From NCBI GenBank assembly GCA_000004695.1, contig CM000153.2, forward strand, positions 3,776,001-3,840,000: a stretch of DNA of 64,000 nt. The letters run 5' to 3'. Below the pieces are notes generated by a model. The model ran no database searches. It saw only the letters and a program-made list of their open reading frames with translations, and was not told the origin of the DNA. Below, in pieces: positions 1 through 21,952 of this stretch. The stretch's first letter is position 1. Each line of letters starts with the position of its first letter. Both the position numbers and the translations under genes were made by a program. Source of the stretch: Dictyostelium discoideum. Its lineage: Eukaryota.

Positions 1-276
1 AACTCTAGATCTGGTACCCACAACATCTACAAGGAATACAGAGATCTCACTCGTTGTGGTGCTGTTTCTCAAATGTACGACGAAATGGCCTCACGTCACT
101 CTGCTCGTGAATCATCCATCCATATCATTGATATCAAGGAAATCGCCGCCTCATTAACCAGACGTGCCAACACTAAACAATTCCACGATTCAAAGATTAA
201 ATTCCCATTAACTCACAGAATTGCTAAATCAAAATCAACCTTTGTTGCCAACAGACCAAATACCTTCTTCTGTTAA
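1..276 (+). CDS. rpl18a: 60S ribosomal protein L18a (eL20), C-terminal exon. The 5' part lies outside the window. Stop codon at 274-276.
   Basis: Translation ...[91 protein letters not shown] aligns nearly residue for residue with the eukaryotic RPL18A C-terminus (...[16 protein letters not shown]...RPNTFF). Confidence 0.85.
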
Positions 277-480
277 ATTTAGATTTTAGGTGCCATATAT
301 ACTAAATAAAAGGGATAGTTATTTAAAAAAAAAATATATTAAAAAATAGGTTTATAGTTGTGCAATTAATTTTTTTAAATAATTTTACAACATTTTACAT
401 TTGGTTTTTCTTAATTTGGTTTTTTAGTTCATCTTTTAATTTTAAATAATTTTTATTATTATTTTATTGTCTCTTTTTAT

Positions 481-999
481 TTAAATTAATTTACATGTTT
501 TAATTTTGAATTCATTTTCTTTAAGAAGATTTTTTGATTCTTCTTTTTTAATAAGATAAATAATAGATATTATTATTACCAGAGCAAAACATACAGAACC
601 TACTATTATACCAGCTAGTTGAGCTTTAGTTAATTTGGAATCGTTAATGGTAGTACAAATTGAATTATCACTTGAGGATGCAGATTTACTATCAATCAAA
701 ACAGAAAAATCAGGATCTATGATTATTGAATTTGCATAATTTGGTAAAATGATACCAATGAATGATTGAGATGATGACGAACTTGAAATTGAGTTGATTG
801 ATGAATCTAATAGTTCATTTGATTTTGTTTTTACTAGAAAGTCAACTATTGCTCTTTTAATAAATCTACCATATAAAGAATGATCATCAACTTTAATTTT
901 TAAATAATTTGATATATCATAGAATTCATCAGTTTTTTCACCAAATTGTTTATCTGAACAAATATCATCAGTCTTTGAAGAAGAAAGTGATGCAGGCAT
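481..999 (-). CDS. Hypothetical small single-pass membrane protein of about 172 aa. Ser-rich, with one TM helix near the C-terminus (IIVGSVCFALVIIISIIYLI) followed by a Lys-rich tail.
   Basis: Uninterrupted ORF. The track start at 1047 is a TTG; the first ATG in frame is at 999 (MPASLSSSKTDD...). No homology recognised. Confidence 0.4.
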   Translation of the reverse strand: MPASLSSSKTDDICSDKQFGEKTDEFYDISNYLKIKVDDHSLYGRFIKRAIVDFLVKTKSNELLDSSINSISSSSSSQSFIGIILPNYANSIIIDPDFSVLIDSKSASSSDNSICTTINDSKLTKAQLAGIIVGSVCFALVIIISIIYLIKKEESKNLLKENEFKIKTCKLI

Positions 1000-1151
1000 A
1001 ATCAATTGTAATCCATTTAATTTATTTTTAAATTTATATTGGGACAATTCAATTGTTTATTTTATAGTTGATGGATTCATTGTTAAATTTTGATTTGCAA
1101 ATATAATATTACTCTTTTCTTTATTTATAAATTATTTAGACGATCCTTTAA

Positions 1152-1845
1152 TTAATAAAATTCAACTTGATTGTTCATTTGTTGATGATTCGTTTGAAAA
1201 AATGAATCAGTCTGACTAAATCCTGATGAAAATCCTTGACTATCATAAAGTTTAATAAAAGTGATTACATAATTTTGAGAAGCGCAAACATTTGAAATAT
1301 TAACTACAATTTCATATTGACCTAAAAATTCATCACCACCAATTCTTGAAAGAGTTGTTAATTGATATTTATAAATTGATCCATCCAATTCACCCCTAAC
1401 TATAATTTCACCACCTTTAAATCCATTAATCTGATCTTCAATCTCTAATAACCATTTTACATAATTTGGATTAATTGAACTACTTTTAATAATTTTTTTA
1501 AATATTGGCCCATATAAATCAAATTCTAAAATTAAAAATTTTAATTTTTATATATTAGTGTTTTACTTTATATATATTAATTAATTTTTTTTAATACTTA
1601 CTTGAAGAAGTTACATTTAATTGATAAGAATCAGATAAATAATAACTATAACTTGAATATAAACCCATAACAAAAGCATATGATAATTGTCCACTTTTAA
1701 AATTTGCAGGAATAGTAAATTCTACTTGAAACATTTTAATTGTTGAATTCCATATCGCATAGTTGGTTTTATCTACATTTTGATCATTAAATATAGCAAT
1801 TGAGGCATTTGGATCGGTATGATTTAAATGCATTATATTGTCCAC
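1152..1845 (-). CDS. Hypothetical protein with at least two exons (1845..1602 and 1525..1152). A further 5' exon is probable, because the track start at 1845 is GTG and there is an in-frame acceptor at about 1888.
   Basis: Canonical GTAAGT donor at 1601-1596 and TTTTAG acceptor at 1527-1526 on the minus strand join track ORFs 1591..1845 and 1152..1388 in frame (..NVTSS/KFDLYGPIFKK..GELDGSIYKY..). No homology recognised. Confidence 0.4.
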
Positions 1846-2074
1846 TGATCTATTAGTTGTATCGATATTATTAAAAAGAAAAGATACATTTTTAATTTTC
1901 TAAATTTATTTTTTTTTATTTTTTTTTTATTTTTTTTATTTTCGAAACCAGGAAAAAAAAAATAAAAAATAAAAAAAAACTAATAATAATTATAAATAAA
2001 ATTTAAGGTATAACATAAAAATGAATATCGCAAAATAATAAAAAAAAAAAAAAATAAAATAAATAAAAAGTAAT

Positions 2075-2114
<40 letters not shown>

Positions 2115-2593
2115 AATTGGTTTTGTTATGGAAAATTATTTTTTTTATTTTTCCAATTTTTATTTTTATTTTTATTTTTATTTTTTTTTTTTATATCTTC
2201 TGGAGGATTTTGAGCATTTTGATTGACGTCATAAAAAAAAAAGTCATGCTTTTTGATTTTTTTCCTATTTTTTTTTTTTTAATTTTTTTTTTTTTTCCTT
2301 TATTTTAATTTTAATTTTTTTTTTTCTTTATTTCAATTGTAATTTTTTTTTATTTTTTTTTTATTTTTTTTTTTTTTTTTTTTTTTCTTACCTTTCAAAA
2401 GTCTTCATCATGTATATCCTCTATAAAAAATAAAAATAAAAATAAAAATAAAACTCAAACATAAGAAATTAAAAATATCCCCCCCATCGTCTACTTAAAT
2501 ATTTAAAAAAATCCAACACATTATTTTTTTTTTTATTTTTTATTTTATTTTTTTTTTTAAAAAATTATTTTAAAAAATTATTATTTAATTTAA

Positions 2594-2645
<52 letters not shown>

Positions 2646-2773
2646 TTTGTTATATTTAAATATATCATAAAAATTTGAGAGAATAATAATAATATTAATA
2701 ATAATAAAAATAAAAACAAAAATAATAATAATAATAATAATAATATAAATATATTAAAAATTATTATATAAGG

Positions 2774-3289
2774 ATGTCAGGAATCTATAGTAATAATAAT
2801 AATAATATAAATAATAATATTAATATAAATAATAATGATATAATTAATATAAATAATAGTAATAATATAAAGAATGTTATAGACCTTGGATTAAATCAAA
2901 ATAAATATTTAGTAGAACCGGATAAAGGTTGTTTATTTACGGCACAAACTACATTTAAAATCCAATATTCACCACAAATTTCACATGTCCTAACATGTAG
3001 AGAATATACGAAATCAGTCGAACAATTAAATTCAACAATAGAGCCTTTATTATCAAGTTTTAGATTAAACAATCTTTTATTCTTATTTATTTTATTATTC
3101 ATTCCATCAATTATTGTCACAGCGATTAATGCAAGTTTAGGAAAATTATTTTTGCCTTCTGTAATTGTTGGTGGTATTTCATTTCTAATTATAATATTTG
3201 CAATATTTAGAAAATCATTTTTACATAGAAAAGTAATTTATTATTTATTAAATAAAAATAAAAATAAAATATTATATATATATTAACTG

Positions 3290-3322
<33 letters not shown>

Positions 3323-3595
3323 TCATTTAGCTTGTTCAAGGCATATCTAGAGATATTAGAGATTTTAATAAAAGGTTTCAAAGTCGTCAAGTTTTATTAG
3401 AATATTTAGTAACTACAAAATTTAATCAAAAGAATGGTAGAGAATATAGTATTAGTTTACATTTAATTTATCCAATAATAACATTAACTCCGGGAATGTT
3501 TTCAATAAATCAACAACAAGAACAACAACAACAACTACAGCAAAAACAACAAAATAAATCTCAAGAATTAGAATACCCACCCCCATTATCGATTC

Positions 3596-5231: not shown

Positions 5232-11680
<6,449 letters not shown>

Positions 11681-11906
11681 ATTAAAAAATCGAAGGTAAA
11701 GAAACAAAATTTTTGAAAAAAAAAAAAAAAGATTTTAAAAAAAAAAACGATAAAAAAAAAAAGATTTAAAAAAAAAAAAAAAATTGGTGGCCAAAAGATT
11801 AATAAATACATCAAAAATTGTTATTTAAATTTTAAAATGAATTTCATTTTTTTACCTTTTTTATTTTTATTTTTTCGTTCGTTTTATTACATTTTATTTT
11901 ATTTTT

Positions 11907-11945
<39 letters not shown>

Positions 11946-12416
11946 CTTTTTTTTTTCAAAAAAAAAAAAAAAAAAATGTAACGTTTTATTAATAATTTCT
12001 ATTAGTTTTAATTTCTTTAGAAAGTCAAAAAAAAAAAAATTAAATTAAATTAAACAATGTTAAACTTTTTTATTTTCTTTTTTTTTTTTTTTTTTCGTTT
12101 TAAACTTTTTTCTTTTTTTTTTTTTTTTTATAAAAAATTTTTTTTTTTTTTTTTTTATTTTTCTTTTTCACCTCCAACAAGCCAAAGTTGCTTTTATTTT
12201 AGCAATTCCTCCAGGTATCAATATAAAACAATGAAAGACATACATAAGCAAAATATAATGGATTCCCTCAGGTTTTCTCATTAACTTGGGAAAGATGAAT
12301 AAAAGACAGTTATTTCAATTGGTTAGATTTTTAAATTTTTCTTGGTTTCCGAAGAATATTATTGGCAATTTACAAATTTTTTCTTTGGAGATTTCGATCA
12401 AAATCGTTTTACAAAA

Positions 12417-13603
12417 ATGAAATATCTTTGGTTATCTTTGTTAACTTTTTCAATTATTTTAAAGTGTAATTATTAATTCCTTACAGAATTTTTCATTTTT
12501 AAAAGGATGATACTAATACTCTTTTTATTTTTTTTAATGATAATATTATAGATTCGTATTGTCAAGAAATATACACATTTGATTGGTCATCTCCACGTGT
12601 CAATATTAATGGACACTCACATTTTAAAGTTGATTACTATCCAGGAACTACCAATGCAAATTATAAGGGTGACTTTTTTCCAGATGTAGAGTCAAATCCA
12701 AATGTAAAGAAATATTATTTCACAGCAGATTGTACCATCGATTCAAATACAGATTTCTCTATTCCAGGTTTTATTACACCGGCTTTGAATAAAACAGATA
12801 ATCCTTTTCCACTTATTACAAATTATAATTCAGTTTTAATTGTACCTTATGGAATGACAGTTACAATCAGTGGTTACATTCAACCAATTCTAACGTTATT
12901 AATTAAGGGTAAGGTTGTCCTCAAACCAACTGTAGTAACCAGATATTGGGCTGGTAAAACCATTATATTTCCAACAGGTGTATTCGAATCAGCTCCAACA
13001 TCATTAGCTTTCAACCATTCAATTAAATTTTATAGTCCCTCATATTGGGAGTTTCCAGAGTGGGACCCACTTCAAACATCAACATTTATTTCATTGGGTG
13101 GCACTGTTACTCTCACTGGTTTGAATTCAGATTCTATGTGGACAGGTAGAAATAGTTCATTCACATCATATGGTGGAACCTTTTTAAATACCCCATTCCC
13201 CTTCGACACTGCTAACAAACCTGTATTCAAAATGGGTGGAACAAGAGATACATTTGGTAATATCAATTATGTAATGAATAATTATTATACCTCATTTAGC
13301 CCATCCACAGGTCCGAATTTTTTAGAAGATACAAGTTTTGCTGGTGCAGGTTACATCCTTATGCGTCCATTTACTAAAAACCTTTTCATTACAGGTGAAG
13401 CAAATTGCTCAATGGTATTTACATTAAACTCAACAGTTAATATCCAGAATAGCGTTTTTTTTGATGTTGGCCACACTTCACCAGAATTATTAGATGATAA
13501 TATAATCAGTTCAACCTATAGTGTAACCAAAAGAGGAAATAACATACCAGATAGATACCCAATTACTTTATTACATAACCAAGTTGATAAAAATTATCTC
13601 TAA
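12417..13603 (+). CDS. Secreted paralogue 3 of the receptor-kinase family, containing only the N-terminal ectodomain segment (about 367 aa). Exons 12417..12465 (signal peptide MKYLWLSLLTFSIILK) and 12552..13603.
   Basis: GTAATT donor at 12466 and TATAG acceptor at 12547-12551, phase 1. Blocks (YYPG, CTID, LIVPYGMTVTISGY, FISLGGTVTLTGL) are homologous to the N-terminal exons of the two minus-strand paralogues (YYPDIC, VILPGGSVTI, ILALGGSLTLIGN). Its stop at 13601-13603 overlaps the last exon of the convergent paralogue 2. Confidence 0.5.
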
Positions 13604-16600
13604 AAGGTATGTTATCACCAGGATTGGTGGATTTTATTACGACTGTTGTTTTTTTATACAAACCTTTGTAAACAGAGGATACATTATTCTTTGCAAGTAA
13701 ACTATGATATTCTAAATCATTAAGATCAAACTGAAGAAAATAAAGTGTAATTAGTACGATGTTTAAGATGCTAATAATATATGATTTTTTCACTTACACG
13801 AGTAGATAATTCTGATTCAACTTGAATATATAGGAATGAATGCATTGACTCTGAACTTTCTATTGTATTAAACTGGACAACAATTTTTTCAAAAAACTAA
13901 AAAATAATGATTAGAATAAAATTTAAAAAGTTTAATGTTAATAGATCTGCTTACTTTGGTGGTGCAATTTAGTGTCAAAGAGAGTTTTACAGCTTTTTCA
14001 GAATTTGGCTCCAATTCAAAATGATAATGATCTGCAAAGACCTAATTATTAAAAAAAATTAGTAAATTGTAAACTCTAAAAATATTCATGTACATTATAA
14101 CCTACATTACCAGTTCTAGAGTCTCTTGGAAGAATAACTTTAACAAAAATGGTTGAGCTTGAAATATTGGAAATGAGTAAAAAATTTGAGTATTCTTTAA
14201 ATAATGTTGCCTTGAGTCCTTTGAGGTTGAAATCTAAAATCTTACTACTAAATCTCAATGGATTGTTAGGGTCTGAAAGTTCGATTAAATTAGATCTTTC
14301 TAAACGAAACATGAATGATGAGGTTCTAAATGAATCAACAATTGGTAACTTCAAAGGTTTTAGTGAGGTACTTGGTGGAAGTGGGAGTGGTGGAGGTGGA
14401 GGTGAAGAGGAGGGTATTGAATGTTGAGGGGAATCGGGACTAATCTGAGGTGTATCAACTGGTAAAACTATTTGTTCATCAGAATTAATTTCTGGATTTT
14501 CATTTATTGGGTCACATCCAATTTCATTAAAATGTGGATTTAAAGCTTCTGGTGTTTTAGTTTCCAATGGAGGTAGCGGTGAGATTAGTGTATAGGGTGC
14601 AATCTTTGGCTTGACTAGAGATTTTAGAACTGGATGAATTTTGTTTGGTATTTCTTTTTGTTCATTTCTTTGTTGAGGAGTTGCAATACTTTCAGATTTA
14701 TTTTCAATATTTGAATTTGATGTTTCTATTGGTTCAATAGTTGTCATTTCATTTTCTATATCAGCTGATTTAAATTTTTTAAATTTCTTTTTATAAAATA
14801 ATCTTCCAAGCATTACCGATGATGCCACGACTACAGCAGAGCAAATAGGTAACACTATTGTTAATAGATTAAGTGTATTTTCATTGGCTGGTACATCTGG
14901 AATGGCTGTTGGATCAGGTATTATTGGGGGAATGAAAAATATGTTTGATGAATAGATTGCCATTGATGTTAAATAAATATCACCTCTTGTTGTAAATGCT
15001 ATATTAATCTTTTCTAATGAATTGGTATTTTCATATTTGAATGTTATGTTTTTAAATGTTGGACCTTGATTGCTTTGTAATGGTTCTAATACATAAACTG
15101 GCTGATTGTCAATGTAAACTGATAATAGACTAGCATGCTGATCAATTGGTACATGTGTAAAAAACAATTGAATTTGACTGATTGTAGAATTACTGTTGAT
15201 TGCTGTTGTGATGATTACTGGCTCATTGGAATTTAATGATGTTACTCCACTTGAAAATAAACTATTCAATTCGTCAGAAGAAGTGACATTTGGTAAATTT
15301 GGTACATAATTTGAATTTTCAGATATTGTACAGTTGCTATCTGTTTTTGTTTGGCATCCACTTTGAAATAAACTACCATTAACTATAAACTGTTGGTTAG
15401 CAAGGTCAGGATTTGCCATACTCCATCCAGAATAAAATGTATACGTTTTTAATACTGTAATCTGTGGGAAATCTATAATGTACAAGTAGTCTGATGATAG
15501 AGAATTTTTTATTTGAACTCTTACATTTGCTGAACCCTCTTTATTTGGTCCAACCGATACAGGTAATATACATTTATTTGATAATACATTGAAATCGACT
15601 GTTCTATTTTGAATAGAATCATTATCAGAAGTAAAAATACATATAATAATATCTTGAAAAGCATAAATTAATCTAAATTGGATTACTATATTGAAAGTCA
15701 ACCCTGAAATTACTTGGAGTGGAGAATTTGGATAAATTGAAACGATTTTAATTCGATCCAATGTAATTGGGCTACTATAGTAATAAGGTGTTATCACTGA
15801 TCCATAAATTTGATCTTTTAGTTGTTCAACGCTATCATTTGATGGATAGTATAAATATGAATTTTGGATATTTGTTGACAAGGATGAGACATTTTTAATT
15901 ATATCTTTACTTGTTAATGGTAATTCAATGCTAGAATTTATAATATCTAATCTTTTAACGCTACCATCTAATTTAAAATTTTCTGTGGCAATAAAATCCT
16001 TCAATATTAAAAAATTGCTATCTAAATTCGCAACAATTGGACCTATTGCAACTAACCCATTGATCGTATATGTATTTGGTTGATTTCCATTACTATTAGC
16101 TACAAAAAGGTTGAAAATAGTTGAGTTAAATAATGTAATATTAGATATTTTAAAATACTTTGGATTTATTAAATAAAAGTCAACTGGACGTTGAACTGAA
16201 CTTAAAACTGAATCAGAATCATTATAACATGGTGCGTAACAGTCCCTATCAAATGATGTTACACTTGATCTATTCGATATGAAATTAAAGTTAAATATAT
16301 TTAATTGACCAATAAAAGTATCATTTTCTGATTTGATGTTTGGTGAAAGCGAATATAAACCATTACCACCCTCATATCCATAATCCATGCTTTTGGCTGA
16401 TGTATTCAATGATCTTGAATATGGGACCAAAAAGTAATGATTATTTTTTGATCTAATGTTTTCTGTTCCAAATTGGGCTATTAAATTTGAACCTGAATAA
16501 CTTGATATAATATTGGATGTAAATTCAACATTTGATGCGAAAAATACAATTGGTGACCTTCTTGGATCTTTTTCAAAAATAACACAATTTTTAATTACTG

Positions 16601-17854
16601 CGTTGTTTGAAAATTCAATGTATAATGAGTTTCTGTATCTTTGGTTGCTACCCTTAATAATATCAGTGACAATGTTTTTATTATTGGGTGAGAATATTAA
16701 TTTGTGATCATTATATTCTTCATTTAATGTTCTACCATCACCATTTATAAAAAAATTTTCAATATGCACTTTAGTATCTCCTGTAATGAAAATTGATGCT
16801 CCAATCGATTCATCAATTTTCTTTACAGAATATCTGTTGGAGATTCCAGTATTCATTTCGTCGATAGTAAATTTTATAAACGCTACTTTCATTACTTTTT
16901 CATTGCCTATTGGTGGGCAACCGCTAATGTTTACTATGGTTCTAGTAGAATCCATAATAATACTGCACAGTGAACCAAGAGGATTTGAATCTGAGAAGAT
17001 TTTAATTTGATAAAGTTTATTAATATTATCTCCAGGAATACTTGAGAATGGTGGAGAAATCCGTAAAGTTGTTTTTGATAAAACCTGGGCTGAATAAATC
17101 AGTGGGTAATTACCAATAAGTGTTAAAGAACCACCCAATGCAAGAATACCTGGAAAGTAACCCATTGGATCAAGTGGAAATTTTGCGGGATTAATGATGT
17201 TTAAACTATTATATTCTTCAAGAGAGAAGAACAAAAGTCCTCTTTTAATTGTCACCGATCCACCTGGTAAAATAACTAATGAGTGGACCATAAAACTATA
17301 AATACTTTCTGGTATATATAATGAGCCCTCCACAAAAGTGTAAAAATAAAAAAATTTTCAAACATATCTGATTGCGGAAATACGCTAAGGGTCAAATTGG
17401 AACCTATAAATAAATAATAAATGTTAAAAATAGTTTTAAAAAATATAGATTTATAAATTTATTACAATACCTTTTGTAATTAAAAATTTATTTAATGTAA
17501 GATTAGCGTCTAGGAAAGTATAAAAAGTCATTAGATCACCTTCAGCGTTTGGCAATGCGCCAGCGCATATATCTGGATAATATAAATCTGCATCTGTTTG
17601 TGAAATATTATTTGATTCAATATTTGAATGTGGAAATCTTTTTATACGTTTTAAACCATAATAACCTGGTGGTGTTGTAATAGTTTCTTCTTTTAAAAAT
17701 TTAAATATAAGTGTTTGATTTTTTTATTTTATTTTATTTATTTTATTTATTTATTTTTAAATTGCAATACTTTACCATCTGCATTTGAATATAAAATAAA
17801 TATGGATAGAAATATTAATAGTATAATAGTCTTTTTAAAAAAGTTATTTTTCAT
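13563..17854 (-). CDS. Receptor-like kinase paralogue 2, probably a pseudogene or decoy. Exons 17854..17776 (signal peptide MKNNFFKKTIILLIFLSIFILYSNAD), 17689..17471, 17403..14106 (ectodomain, TM helix, proline-rich segment; -1 frameshift near 17345), 14041..13955, 13896..13798, 13730..13563. The kinase homology stops after the VVIK (VAIK-lysine) region with a degenerate glycine loop (NNVSSV).
   Basis: Exon-by-exon collinearity with paralogue 1: ...ITKG|GSN..., ...LNCTTK|GTAAGC, FFEKIVVQFNTIESSESMHSFLYIQVE versus YLEKIGVCIESFDGSCKWSTFLYIHIE, then FDLNDLEYHSLLAKNNVSSVYKGLYKKTTVVIK...GYVIK*. The track ORF 14076..17333 starts at a GTG created by the frameshift. The TAG at 14076 lies inside a 66-nt GTAGGT...AG intron. 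Confidence 0.45.
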
Positions 17855-18130
17855 TTTCTTTAAAATAAAAAAAGAAAAACAAAATTTTGTGCGACAATCG
17901 GAAAGATTTTGAAAAGTGATTGAAAAAAAAAGAAAAATAAAAAAAAAACATAGTTTTTTTTTTTTATTTTGAGTTTTTTTTTTTTTAGATTTTAAAAATT
18001 TTGGAAATGAAGATATTTTGAATAAGTTGAAAACCTAATATTTGAATGAAGATCCATCTTGTTACGTATCTCAAAAAAAAAAAAAAATTATAAAAAAGAG
18101 TGAATAAATAAATCATTTTAATTTTATTTT

Positions 18131-18428
18131 CTATTCATTTGAGTTTTCATCACCCGAATGATCATTATTATAAAATGAATTTTCTGAAAATGGTGTACAT
18201 TCATTATTATTATTATTCTTATTATTTATAATTGATTCTTCAATTTTATCTTCTAAATCATTTTTTGAATATTGGAATTGAGCACGATCTAAATCTATAG
18301 TTCCTTCTTGTTTACTTGTTCCATTTATGAAATCATCTGATGTAATAACAGTTTTTGAATCACCAACAATTGGTTCACCATTATTTCCTAATAATTCATT
18401 TGCACCTATTTCCTCTTGTTGTTGTTGC

Positions 18429-18486
<58 letters not shown>

Positions 18487-21177
18487 GCTGTGATTGTGTA
18501 TTTAATATATCTGGTATCTTTAAATCAAATGCTCTAAATTTACCAACATTACTTAAATGTTCATTCTCTAAACGGAAAACTAAATAAAAAAATAAATAAA
18601 AAAAGAATAAATGATTAGTATTTGTACTATTAAAATAAAAAATAAAAAAAAATAGTAAATTAATATACATACAATTCCATTGAAATCTTCTAGTTACTTC
18701 GATTACAGCAGTTGCCAAAACAATTAATTCTTTAGTTCTTGAAGAAAGTGCTTCAAATGAAACATTAATAGTCCAAGATCCCCTCATCAATGTATTTGTA
18801 ATCATTGCGAAATAATAAACCCATTTGTGTCTATAAAACAAATGATCACGAAGAAGGAAATTACGACTATGAGTTCTTAAAACACCCCAATCCATTAAAA
18901 AGTCCCACCCTAATGAATAAATTGTACTAACAATTGATATAATTATCCATAATGCTAATGTACCTTTCTTATGTGACGAGTCAGCTATAAAATTAAAAAA
19001 ATAAAAAACATGTTAATAACTTTTTATTATTATAATAATTATTACTACTACTACTATTATTATTAAACTTACTTAATAATTTTGAATTTGCGATTGAACT
19101 TGTAACAGTTGATAACATTGTTAATGAATATTTACCAAAATTCATCATATGAATATTTTGTTTTGTATCTTTAAAACGACGAAGTGATTGTAAGGCACGA
19201 AGTAAAGGTGGTACACAAACTAAACAAGGTTTAATATATGGATTAATTCTCCAGCAAATATCACCATCTGTCCAAAGATCTGAAACGAAAAAGCAAATGA
19301 CATACTCTAAATCACTTAATACAATTGATAATGAAGTAAACTGATCACCAAAAAAGAAATCTTTGAATTTCACAGGTAAAAATGGTGCACTGAAAATTCT
19401 TGCAAATGTATGAATTAACCAATATCTACTTGGTCTAAATATAATATTGAATGGACAAAACACAATAAATAATACTATAGCAATCAATAAAAATGGGAAA
19501 AGTATCGGTAATTTCCCATCAATATGTATTGCCAAGTATGTATATAAAAATAAACTAAGTGTCCATAAAAATGTTAAACCACTTGCTAACTATATATATA
19601 TATACATAATAAAAAAATAAAAAATAAAAAATAAAAAATGTTAATATGTGCGTGTGTTTTTTTTTGTTTTATATTAATTAAAATGAAATACTTACAAATA
19701 AAATATGATAATGCGTTATATTGGTTCTAGCATCCCAACCTAAGATTAAAAACAAATTAATATTTTTACCAGAGGTGACATAGAGTAGAATACCAAAATA
19801 CCAAAGTAATAGAATTGGTATACCAATCATACGATGGAGCATAAACATTGATAAAAAGTGTAATGGTGTTGGCGAATCAAAATAAATGATGGCGACGTTA
19901 TTAATCATATAACGTATACAAAATATAAAGAGAATTAGGCTCATACCAGATAGACCACCTGTTAAGAACACCACTTTCGGTGGTGCATTATATTCTTTGG
20001 GTACACGAAGTTTGGCCATTGCATTTCTTCTATTACCATGCTTGAAAGTGTTTGTATACAATGATTCGATTTCACGTTCGATAACAACCAACTTTTTAGA
20101 CTTGACAAAGTATTGCTGTTGAACTAACTTCATACCATCTACTGAACTATCAGATTGTAAAACTTTATCATACTTTTTAAATATCTTTCTAAATGCAATC
20201 ATATTCAATGAAGTGTATTCTTTTAATGCTTGAATCTCTCTATAGTTTTCCTCCATTGCTCTCTTTAATGATCTTCTAATTTTACCCAATTTTAAACTAC
20301 CCGGGTTCCAATATGTTTCTGCATTTGCTGCATGTGCAATAGCTTTTACTGCCATTGCTGATGGTGATGATGATGATGATGATGATGGTGACGATTGGGC
20401 GTATCGTTGTGAATTTGATGAGGCACCACCGACACCATCATCTTTTATAGCTGATGAAGTTAAATTTGAACTATTTCTTTTCTTTATAATTGAAGGATTA
20501 TAAAATAAATGAGAGAATTTACCTAACCTTGGTGAATCCTCACTAATTGCATCTTTTAAACTTTTTGAAGAACTATTTTTACAAATTTCACTCATTGCTA
20601 CTACCTTTTGTTTAATATCATTGAATTGATGTATAAATTCATCTTCTTGTTGTTTAAAAAATGTATTCACTTTATCAAATTCCTCCTGTAACATTGAATC
20701 AAATTTCTTTTCTTCTCTCTCTATATTATTCTCTCTAATTATTACTGGTCCTCTTTGAATAATTGAAGATTGACTTAATGGATTACTATTATTACTTTTT
20801 ATACTACCTCCACTTGAATTAATTATTGTTTTAGAATTTACATTTGTTGTAGTTGTTGATGATGATGATGATGATGTTGCTGCTGTTGTTGTTGTTGTTG
20901 TTGTGGGTTCAATGCTTTGTAATGGTATTTCTATTTGTGATTGTGATTGTGATGGCGATGATGACGATTGTGATGGTGGTGGTATTTTTGATATTGATTT
21001 ATTTATTGGTATTGCTGTTAATTCTATCTGTATCTGAGATTCATTTCCAATATATAATTCCTCTTCTGTTTTTGCTCTTTTAATTGATTTAATTTGTTTT
21101 TTAAATGATTTATAAAAAACATATTTCTTTTTCCACGCACTAACTTGCCTTCGTTGTAAATATTTTCCAAATTTCAT
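18131..21177 (-). CDS. xpr1: SPX-EXS domain protein, a XPR1/PHO1-type phosphate exporter homologue. Exons 21177..19696, 19588..19073, 18984..18673, 18579..18131.
   Basis: N-terminal MKFGKYLQRRQVSAWKKKYVFYKSFKK is a canonical SPX start. EXS-domain motifs are present ([33 protein letters not shown], matching human XPR1 [19 protein letters not shown] once the 18672..18580 intron is removed). Donors are GTAAGT or GTATGT. The C-terminal tail contains a 25-Gln tract from a (CAA)n run. Confidence 0.8.
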
Positions 21178-21596
21178 TTTATATTATTATTATTATTATT
21201 ACTCTACTATTATTTTTTTTACTATTATTGTATTATTATTATTTTAAAAACTATTATTATTACTGGTTTAATTTTACAAAATTATTGTACTTGTATAAAA
21301 ACATTAAAAAAAAAAAAAAAATAAAAAAAAAAATAAAAAAAATAAGAAATTTGAAATTTAATTCTTTAGAATGAATAAAGAGGGAGAGAGAAATATAAAA
21401 TGTTTTTATTTAAAAAAAATGGGTTTTTTTTTTTTTGTGTTTGTGCAGTATGTAGGAAATATTATTTGTGTAATTATAGGTATGTGTGTGTGTGTATGTA
21501 GATTGTTTTTATTTATTTATTTTTTATCTTTTTTAAAATTAATAGATAAAGAAAAAATTTCATACTAAACTGTACAATTTTTTTATTTTGGTGATA

Positions 21597-21628
<32 letters not shown>

Positions 21629-21952
21629 CTTTTTTGTTGATATGAATTATTCAATAATAATTTCTAAAGAAATCGACAGTGTGAATGTTGTTAATTAAAA
21701 AAAAAAAAAAACTGGTAATATAAAAAAAAAAAAAAAAACTGGTTATGTTGGGAGAAAAAAAAAAAATAATTGAAAATATTACGTGATTAATTATTATTGA
21801 TTGGTGTGAATGTTTGTGTGCAATATTGCATGGGTGCGATAATTTTTAATTGAACTTTCAGACATTTACTGAATATGAGTTTTAGACCAATATTGTGAGG
21901 GTATTTTTTATGAAATTTAATTTTTTTTTTTTTTTATTTTTGAAATCAAAAA

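Follow-up and report, generated by a model that had tools for sequence, protein, structure and literature searches.

The 3′ parts of gdt5 and of its convergent neighbour were probably lost in one deletion, and gdt5 is now a probable pseudogene, like Gdt3_ps. This is the best reading of the sequence comparisons. The window, the whole stretch of 64 kb that was analysed, belongs to chromosome 4 of D. discoideum AX4. The gene treated as paralogue 2 in the original prediction is gdt5 (DDB_G0285895, UniProt Q54MK0), which is annotated without a kinase. A protein search matched its large open reading frame at 100% identity to DDB_G0285895, ‘Growth-differentiation transition protein 5’. The gene treated as paralogue 1 is Gdt3_ps, already published as a kinase pseudogene. 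The central call was borne out: gdt5 is decayed, ends before helix C, is frameshifted and has no kinase restored downstream. The decay is of an ordinary kind; it corrects an annotation and reveals no new kind of system. The anatomy of the locus is given in Table 1.

Table 1. Features of the gdt5 locus and its neighbours, in window positions
Feature	Position	Strand	Properties
gdt5 exon 1	17776..17854	-	start codon and signal peptide (MKNNFFKKTIILLIFLSIFILYSNAD); matches the N-terminus of DDB_G0285895
gdt5 exon 2	17471..17689	-	EETITTPPGYY...FLITK
Ancestral intron	17407..17470	-	after ITK/G; 6% GC; common to gdt3_ps and gdt6
Coding remnant	17334..17406	-	GSNLTLSVFPQSDMFENFFIFTL; 73 nt, 29% GC; out of frame with the rest of gdt5; intronic in both public models
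gdt5 large exon	14106..17333	-	ectodomain, transmembrane helix, juxtamembrane region, first half of the predicted ASH/PapD-like domain
Intron 1	14105-14042	-	64 nt, phase 0, GTAGGT..AG; same position and phase in gdt6
Short exon 2′	13955..14041	-	VFADHYHFELEPNSEKAVKLSLTLNCTTK; predicted ASH/PapD-like strands, not kinase
Intron 2	13954-13897	-	58 nt, phase 0; conserved in gdt6 and gdt3_ps
Short exon 3′	13798..13896	-	FFEKIVVQFNTIESSESMHSFLYIQVESELSTR; last strands of the predicted ASH/PapD-like domain
Intron 3	13797-13731	-	67 nt, phase 0; conserved in gdt6, absent from gdt3_ps
Kinase relic	13632..13730	-	33-34 codons; beta1, non-glycine loop AKNNVSSV, beta2, beta3 to the VVIK lysine
Read-through tail of gdt5	13563..13631	-	STNPGDNIPFRDNFYQLGYVIK and stop; 3′ part antisense to the neighbour's conserved ITLLHNQV codons
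Rearrangement junction interval	13595..13631	.	between the last kinase-homologous and the last G8-like-homologous codon
DDB_G0285893 (Q54MK1)	12417..13603	+	366 aa, intron 12466-12551; N-terminal third of a ~1015-aa G8-like family
Gdt3_ps	5232..11680	-	kinase exons intact (7697-7284, 7194-7045, 6968 onward); ectodomain frame breaks at ~10500 and ~10990

The GDT family comprises the Dictyostelium receptor-like TKL kinases Gdt1, 2, 4, 6, 8 and 9 (Goldberg et al. 2006, PMC1420674). With these proteins gdt5 has in common the signal peptide, the gdt ectodomain, a single transmembrane helix, the predicted ASH/PapD-like domain and the intron positions of gdt6. It differs in a kinase that is reduced to beta1-beta3 and in an N-terminal frameshift. 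Putative signal peptide and transmembrane features were read from the letters (MKNNFFKKTIILLIFLSIFILYSNA, and LLTIVLPICSAVVVASSVMLGRLFY at 14867-14793). The conserved gdt extracellular domain is present, with 42–47% identity to kinase-bearing GDT proteins over 91–99% of the query and E-values down to 4e-215. The ectodomain itself is 46–56% identical to other GDT ectodomains and keeps 138 of the 163 positions that do not vary among 11 relatives.

The exon structure of the 3′ end was predicted correctly. The large exon ends where expected, the coordinates of the three short exons, their GT..AG introns and the quoted peptides are right, and the spliced frame yields exactly those peptides before it stops at 13565-13563. 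Introns 1–3 have a GC content of 17–24%, the flanking exons 24–35%. The AX4 gene model runs into intron 1 and stops at 14076; an independent gene model (P0015) also uses exon 2′. The proposed model for this structure, paralogue 1, was the wrong one. Gdt3_ps has only the middle intron (STK/YLEK) and reads through the other two positions, while the full match of three introns, in positions and phase, is to gdt6. The preserved splice phases had been taken as a sign of recent decay. They indicate inheritance from a full-length gdt gene, and only that.

Two of the three short exons do not encode kinase. An AlphaFold (AF2) model has a beta-sandwich at residues 36–143 with pLDDT values of 85–95. Foldseek matched the modelled sandwich to the ASH/PapD-like domains of OCRL1 (3qbt, E = 9e-7), CEP192 (6fvi) and HYDIN (2e6j). 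The domain starts at ~14261, and exons 2′ and 3′ contribute its last four strands. According to this model and its matches, GDT proteins have an ASH/PapD-like domain on the cytoplasmic side of the membrane, ahead of the kinase, a domain that the published family definition does not include. Splicing of the three short introns is needed for a complete predicted ASH domain in gdt5. In an alignment of seven cytoplasmic sequences, gdt5 keeps all 21 invariant columns, 20 of which lie within P35-D150 (ASH and the first residues of the relic). The view that all three short exons encode the kinase N-terminus thus holds for the last exon (13730-13632), which is kinase-derived; the other two are ASH/PapD-like and lie N-terminal to the kinase.

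The homology of the C-terminal exons of gdt5 to the family is far above chance. With C-termini of the gdt6 type, tblastn gave four colinear matches (14294-14103, 14020-13955, 13896-13798 and 13733-13632) with E-values of 1e-13 and 5e-7. Scored against a family N-lobe HMM, the first 36 amino acids of exon 4 reached 23.3 bits; among 2000 shuffles the top score was 8.8. Kinase homology ends abruptly at 13632, directly after the beta3 lysine. The stub terminates before helix C, as proposed. A Pfam kinase is absent from the stub and present in gdt3_ps (8.5e-52), where the start of the domain is homologous to the start of the relic. Instead of a C-terminal eukaryotic protein kinase domain, gdt5 has only beta1-beta3 left. 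Of the bilobal fold that defines a pseudokinase, gdt5 lacks helix C, the hinge and the entire C-lobe, and the 34-aa relic cannot fold as a kinase. The inactive pseudokinase members of the family, gdt6 and gdt1, are different: gdt6 keeps a complete, catalytically degenerate kinase fold, which the gdt5 fragment cannot form. The loop of gdt5, AKNNVSSV, resembles the SQNNLSTV and SKNNLSTV of the gdt6 type. The replacement of GTFGVV by NNVSSV had been read as a sign of decay. Loops of the gdt6 type (QNNLSTV, KNNLSTV) and of the gdt8 type (SHHPSKV) have no glycines either, and given its resemblance to the former, the gdt5 loop is not evidence of recent decay.

The last ~13–22 codons of the stub are not kinase. 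Read on the other strand, the final QLGYVIK and stop are the conserved ITLLHNQV codons of DDB_G0285893, the convergent gene. A MAFFT alignment paired the tail residues NFYQLG with the kinase hinge TEYAPLG, which implied an internal deletion. It was rejected because the tail codons are antisense to the other gene's conserved ITLLHNQV. From 13594 downward, the DNA is the antisense of DDB_G0285893, and the two genes overlap by 41 nt on opposite strands. DDB_G0285893 is itself truncated. It matches only residues 18–355 of P0019 (1017 aa) and 31–371 of P0021 (1016 aa) and lacks the remainder of the ~1000-aa G8-like architecture past the RYPITLLHN motif. The G8-like homology on the forward strand ends at 13585-13594, and the gene stops five codons later. 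A word-index protein search with DDB_G0285893 returned itself only; its sensitivity is limited, and with the cytoplasmic 377 aa of gdt5 it missed P0001 (DDB_G0285895), in which ~300 of these residues occur exactly.

These boundaries bear on the original prediction, in which point mutations had degraded the gdt5 kinase where it stood, with paralogue 1 as the intact reference. A last exon that reaches a stop 56 codons in and a loop without glycines would fit such a course. The DNA 3′ of 13594, as the antisense of another gene, does not fit, nor does the lack of any kinase trace past 13632. The non-glycine loop is normal in members of the gdt6 and gdt8 types, and paralogue 1 is a pseudogene and an old paralogue. 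The two homology boundaries (13632 and 13594) contradict decay in place, which is hardly credible. The abrupt stop of homology at 13632, together with another truncated gene beyond it, is a sign of rearrangement, and the simplest form of it would be a deletion.

Intact convergent pairs of a gdt kinase and a G8-like gene occur at three other Dictyostelium loci. At these loci, the VAVK lysine and LLHN are 3222 nt (L003), 3331 nt (L004) and 3730 nt (L005) apart, compared to 53 nt at gdt5. From the intact pairs we infer a deletion of 3.2–3.7 kb that removed both 3′ ends. L003 was considered as the same locus in another strain, an orthologue; this was rejected, as its flanks differ from those of the window and the identity is just 67–72%. 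Insertion of a G8-like fragment into the kinase was also rejected, as there is no kinase remainder on the far side (11500-12417).

The ancestral gdt5 would have encoded a signal peptide, the gdt ectodomain, one transmembrane helix, an ASH/PapD-like domain and a TKL-type kinase domain, and would have stood tail to tail with a ~1015-aa G8-like gene. A single deletion of ~3.2–3.7 kb probably took the 3′ part of both genes, with breakpoints just past the codon of the kinase beta3 lysine and just past the RYPITLLHN motif of the neighbour. Each gene now continues past the junction on the opposite strand of its partner up to a chance stop, gdt5 for 22 codons (stop at 13563) and DDB_G0285893 for 5 codons (stop at 13603). 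What is left of gdt5 is the ectodomain, the transmembrane helix, the predicted ASH domain (complete if the introns are spliced) and the 34-aa kinase relic. Separately, a −1 frameshift at ~17334 destroys a conserved cysteine codon in the N-terminal region.

One end of an inversion, or of a complex rearrangement joining previously unlinked genes, also yields a tail-to-tail junction of two truncated genes. GDT/G8-like clusters elsewhere hold several fragments and a retrotransposon and so appear rearrangement-prone. Against this origin of the truncation, the convergent pair is intact at three other loci, so the genes probably were neighbours already, and a reciprocal junction is missing within the 64 kb. 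The case for the deletion draws on paralogous loci and not on an intact orthologous locus. A reciprocal junction could lie at a distance; we consider an inversion very unlikely.

Downstream exons that restore a full kinase, or an error in the assembly, would make the truncation only apparent. Searches with seven family kinases (tblastn) found no kinase-like sequence between 11500 and 13632, and the only other kinase-like sequence in the whole window is gdt3_ps. Reaching the gdt3_ps kinase exons requires an intron of ~6 kb; Dictyostelium introns are typically 60–250 nt long (PMC1420674). A second assembly, GCA_054883475.1, has zero differences to the window over 12140-21599, which argues against an assembly error; it derives from a near-identical strain and thus carries no polymorphism information. 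Both the frameshift and the truncation are present in it. Neither the tblastn search of the window nor the second assembly gave any support for a restored kinase or an assembly error, and this explanation has next to no probability.

The predicted −1 frameshift near the 5′ end is real. In gdt5, CTTTTGTGGAGGG starts at 17338 and corresponds to CTTTGCGTGGAAGG in the neighbouring gdt3_ps. The −1 deletion lies at ~17334-17336 within the Cys codon of the LC[VI]EG motif, which all family sequences compared contain. Both public gene models bury the frameshifted segment in an ‘intron’ of exon-like composition. They differ on the acceptor that bridges it; because of this disagreement, neither is known to have transcript support. 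The frame after the frameshift (1076 codons) is still open. Goldberg et al. recognised kinase pseudogenes by a coding-like ‘intron’ hiding a frameshift in a conserved region, or by a truncated open reading frame (PMC1420674). In gdt5, masking of this kind (Goldberg et al. 2006) is seen in the frameshift in LC[VI]EG, the coding remnant within the ‘intron’ and the open reading frame cut within intron 1.

Gdt3_ps, listed as a pseudogene in Table S2 of PMC1420674, belongs to the same family and lies in the same tandem array and orientation, ~2 kb away. As in gdt5, its lesions are masked in automated models. The two genes are damaged in complementary ways: in Gdt3_ps the ectodomain is frameshifted and the kinase motifs are intact, whereas gdt5 has a largely intact ectodomain frame and has lost the kinase. 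The two ectodomains share 56% amino-acid identity with a dS of ~0.76, and gdt6 is at least as close to gdt5. By this divergence, Gdt3_ps is an old paralogue; it is also itself a pseudogene, and a poor baseline for gdt5. The suggested comparison of the two gave a dN/dS of 0.42 overall and 0.39 in a block of 84% identity. The value reveals past constraint, which acted for much of the history of gdt5; it averages the long shared history of two decayed genes, dates neither loss and, for an old pair with both genes decayed, is silent on present constraint of either. In a relative-rate test with three outgroups, gdt5 was not accelerated, and its rate did not differ from the rate of gdt3_ps.

Alternatively, gdt5 may be a functional kinase-less receptor that binds the GDT ligand or pairs with kinase-bearing Gdt proteins, as a decoy or modulator, with a cryptic acceptor bridging the frameshift. 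The frame is long and open, family-invariant residues are kept in the ectodomain and the ASH domain, and dN/dS is below 1. All three conserved introns remain intact, and once they are spliced a domain predicted with confidence is complete. Both public models assume a cryptic acceptor past the frameshift, which could preserve the frame. The models disagree on that acceptor, the frameshift removes the conserved Cys motif, and any bridging splice would lose 25–33 conserved residues. Annotations from several strains and species include kinase-less members (gdt7 and the 947–959-aa P0006, P0010 and P0011). These gdt7-type sequences (DDB_G0292314 and relatives of 947–981 aa in other strains and species) are, like gdt5, family members without a kinase. 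Those of 947–959 aa end soon after the ectodomain and have close relatives elsewhere. The transmembrane helix, the ASH domain and the kinase relic set gdt5 apart from this type, and a protein search with its large open reading frame found no close orthologue in other species, which speaks against a retained function. So does the accepted pseudogene in the same tandem array. Neither a gdt5 entry nor evidence of its expression turned up in the supplements of PMC6198379, PMC7078664 and PMC12821622, a further point against a functional receptor.

Truncated receptor kinases of the TrkB.T1 type are decoys produced from an intact gene through regulated alternative splicing, with proven expression and function. 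Their ectodomain, transmembrane helix and short non-catalytic cytoplasmic part would be analogous to those of gdt5; unlike in TrkB.T1, the kinase loss of gdt5 is genomic. A functional receptor, the main alternative, is altogether a minor possibility. More specifically, an expressed gdt5 might be a kinase-less decoy or co-receptor, made up of ectodomain, transmembrane helix and ASH domain, that tunes a growth-to-differentiation switch of the Gdt1/Gdt2 type, and the overlap with DDB_G0285893 might add antisense regulation; this reading as a whole seems quite unlikely. We infer that gdt5 is probably without function at present.

The locus raises no new question and displays no new mechanism. Its value is chiefly one of annotation: the AX4 model of gdt5 ends within an intron and conceals a frameshift, and DDB_G0285893 is a fragment. 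Together, gdt5 and DDB_G0285893 would be the record of one deletion in a rearrangement-prone array of receptor-kinase and G8-like genes. For the family as a whole, the predicted ASH/PapD-like domain before the kinase may help thinking about signalling by Gdt1 and Gdt2.

The gdt5 3′ end is real, its coordinates are correct and both the gene and its family were already known. On the minus strand, the large ORF at 14076-17333 matches DDB_G0285895, a chromosome 4 gene of Dictyostelium discoideum AX4, with 100% identity; UniProt (Q54MK0) lists it as 'Growth-differentiation transition protein 5' (gdt5). The base composition of the window is 16-35% GC, with short, AT-rich introns and poly-Asn tracts. 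The tandem paralogue was identified by its opening sequence (segments of 21 and 15 residues) as Gdt3_ps, which the Dictyostelium kinome study lists in its Table S2 as DDB0219954p with the label 'pseudogene' (PMC1420674). That kinome comprises six GDT receptor kinases (Gdt1, 2, 4, 6, 8, 9) and Gdt3_ps; gdt5 is absent (PMC1420674). The gene upstream of gdt5 appears from its N-terminal sequence to be of the SPX/EXS type (XPR1-like) and would help to locate gdt5 by synteny in other species.

Joining the four predicted gdt5 exons yields an open frame with exactly the peptides first reported. The 3′ introns of 64, 58 and 67 nt are GT..AG introns in phase 0 with 17-24% GC, compared with 24-35% in the exons. 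The exon structure does not copy that of Gdt3_ps, as first thought: Gdt3_ps has the middle intron only (STK/YLEK, the slash marking the intron), and its reading frame continues across the other two sites. It is gdt6 that has all three introns, each in phase 0 and at a matching residue (SGE/VNV, CTTR/FFER, ISSK/LDIK). The assignment of all three short exons to the kinase holds only for the 13730-13632 part of the last exon; the Pfam kinase domain of Gdt3_ps begins at the residue homologous to that exon's start. The first two short exons encode the last four strands of a beta-sandwich, modelled by AlphaFold in the cytoplasmic part (residues 36-143, pLDDT 85-95), that resembles the ASH/PapD-like domains of OCRL1, CEP192 and HYDIN. 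All 21 invariant columns of a seven-sequence alignment are kept in gdt5, 20 of them within P35-D150. The AX4 annotation runs into intron 1, with a stop at 14076, and would halve this predicted domain. A second public model, P0015, splices the first two introns.

When the C-termini of seven relatives that bear a kinase were used as queries, tblastn gave four colinear matches (E = 1e-13 and 5e-7), the last ending at 13632. At the start of the last exon, 36 residues scored 23.3 bits against the family N-lobe HMM; the best of 2000 shuffles reached 8.8. The similarity is therefore not due to chance. From beta1 the relic runs through the loop AKNNVSSV and beta2 to the VVIK lysine of beta3. The change from GTFGVV to NNVSSV is not evidence of decay after truncation, as had been proposed: the equivalents are QNNLSTV or KNNLSTV in gdt6-type and SHHPSKV in gdt8-type proteins, and the annotation of gdt6 is that of an inactive kinase. 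As the family tree is star-like, we only infer that the lost kinase may already have been of the degenerate gdt6-type loop class before truncation.

Public annotation treats the convergent DDB_G0285893 (Q54MK1) as an ordinary gene, but it amounts to no more than the N-terminal third of a G8-like family of about 1015 aa. An exhaustive profile search aligned it only to the N-terminal part (340-370 residues) of proteins with lengths of 956, 1016, 1017 and 1901 aa; one of these comes from D. purpureum and is named 'G8 domain-containing protein'. After the conserved RYPITLLHN, full-length members continue with [KT][IV]AV.I.NN, whereas DDB_G0285893 has QVDKNYL and a stop, five codons beyond the homology boundary. 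G8-like homology ends at 13585-13594 and kinase homology at 13632, placing the junction within 13595-13631. The gdt5 tail, QLGYVIK and stop, is the reverse complement of ITLLHNQV of its neighbour. Both convergent genes are cut at one point, and the frame of each runs on for several codons in the antisense of its partner.

Intact tail-to-tail pairs of a full-length gdt kinase gene and a full-length G8-like gene occur at three other Dictyostelium loci (L003, L004 and L005). The distance from the beta3 lysine codon to the LLHN codons is 3222, 3331 and 3730 nt in these pairs, respectively, versus 53 nt in the window. The simplest history is that about 3.2-3.7 kb spanning the common 3′ ends was deleted. 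Insertion of a G8-like fragment into the gdt5 kinase was ruled out because no kinase remainder follows the fragment. The junction may also be one end of an inversion whose reciprocal junction lies far away; the deletion is the simpler account.

Features of the gdt5 locus and of related loci (window positions unless a locus is named)
Feature	Position	Strand	Remark
gdt5 exons	17333-14106, 14041-13955, 13896-13798, 13730-13563	minus	
Gdt3_ps	~5232-11680	minus	
DDB_G0285893	12417-13603	plus	two exons, 366 aa
SPX/EXS-type gene (putative)	18131-21177	minus	919 aa, at least 3 exons
L003, gdt kinase gene	13855-19024		
L003, G8-like gene	19308 onward		convergent unit 13855-21702
L004, gdt kinase gene	8001-13106		
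L004, G8-like gene	13518-16668		convergent unit 8001-16668
L005, gdt kinase gene	10001-15183		
L005, G8-like gene	15981-19091		convergent units 1-3119 and 10001-19091
L003, retrotransposon ORF	1-3404		RVT_1, RNase H, integrase
gdt6 locus (L002), ectodomain copy	7874-10427		directly downstream of gdt6

The predicted -1 frameshift was confirmed; it falls on the cysteine codon of LC[VI]EG, a motif present in every family sequence compared. An independent assembly (GCA_054883475.1) is identical to the window over 12140-21599; frameshift and kinase loss are therefore not sequencing errors. Both public models bridge the frameshift with an 'intron' holding 73 nt of exon-like sequence with 29% GC (6% in the true intron), and they differ in its acceptor. 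Coding-like 'introns' covering disabling mutations were a criterion of Goldberg et al. for kinase pseudogenes (PMC1420674).

The suspected decay of gdt5 is supported by the lost kinase, the destroyed conserved cysteine and the frameshift hidden in the models; its tandem neighbour, an accepted pseudogene, was also counted towards it. gdt5 is probably a pseudogene. A functional, kinase-less receptor is unlikely. Against decay, a frame of 1076 codons is still open. Of 163 ectodomain positions that do not vary among 11 relatives, gdt5 keeps 138 (Gdt3_ps 126); it also shows no rate acceleration and has a dN/dS of 0.42 against Gdt3_ps, but these measures reflect a long history and cannot date the lesions. 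The two paralogues are 56% identical with a dS of about 0.76, and the gdt5-gdt6 distance is equal. The published supplements searched contained no expression data on gdt5.

Gdt3_ps has ectodomain frame breaks at about 10500 (a 12-residue stretch, then 16 residues in a different frame) and about 10990 (12 residues). Despite these, its kinase exons match Pfam at 8.5e-52, and a newer annotation of a near-identical strain models a 1975-aa protein. Very long Asn-rich/(AAT)n-type tracts occupy its C-terminal tail and juxtamembrane region (5300-6600, 8415-8670). Where the second assembly differs from the window in length, it does so mainly at homopolymer runs. A membrane-proximal ectodomain block of 425 bp (gdt5 14945-15369, Gdt3_ps 8931-9352) has 84% identity versus 68.6% overall and a dS of 0.34 versus 0.76, and may stem from gene conversion between the tandem paralogues. 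The second gdt-like ectodomain copy, just downstream of gdt6, is split over several reading frames; gene models render it as two short genes, and it probably represents a further family member in decay.

What is new is limited to three unannotated or mis-annotated gdt5 3′ exons, a 34-residue kinase relic, a probable deletion junction common with the truncated neighbour and, from the structural model, a predicted ASH/PapD-like domain in GDT proteins. These findings serve curation chiefly; their general interest is low. The L003 cluster adjoins a retrotransposon ORF and also has a 488-aa gdt fragment and a 5′-truncated G8-like gene. Several strains and species carry the convergent unit, in some cases with one fragmentary partner, which suggests that the gdt/G8-like pair duplicates and decays as one unit.
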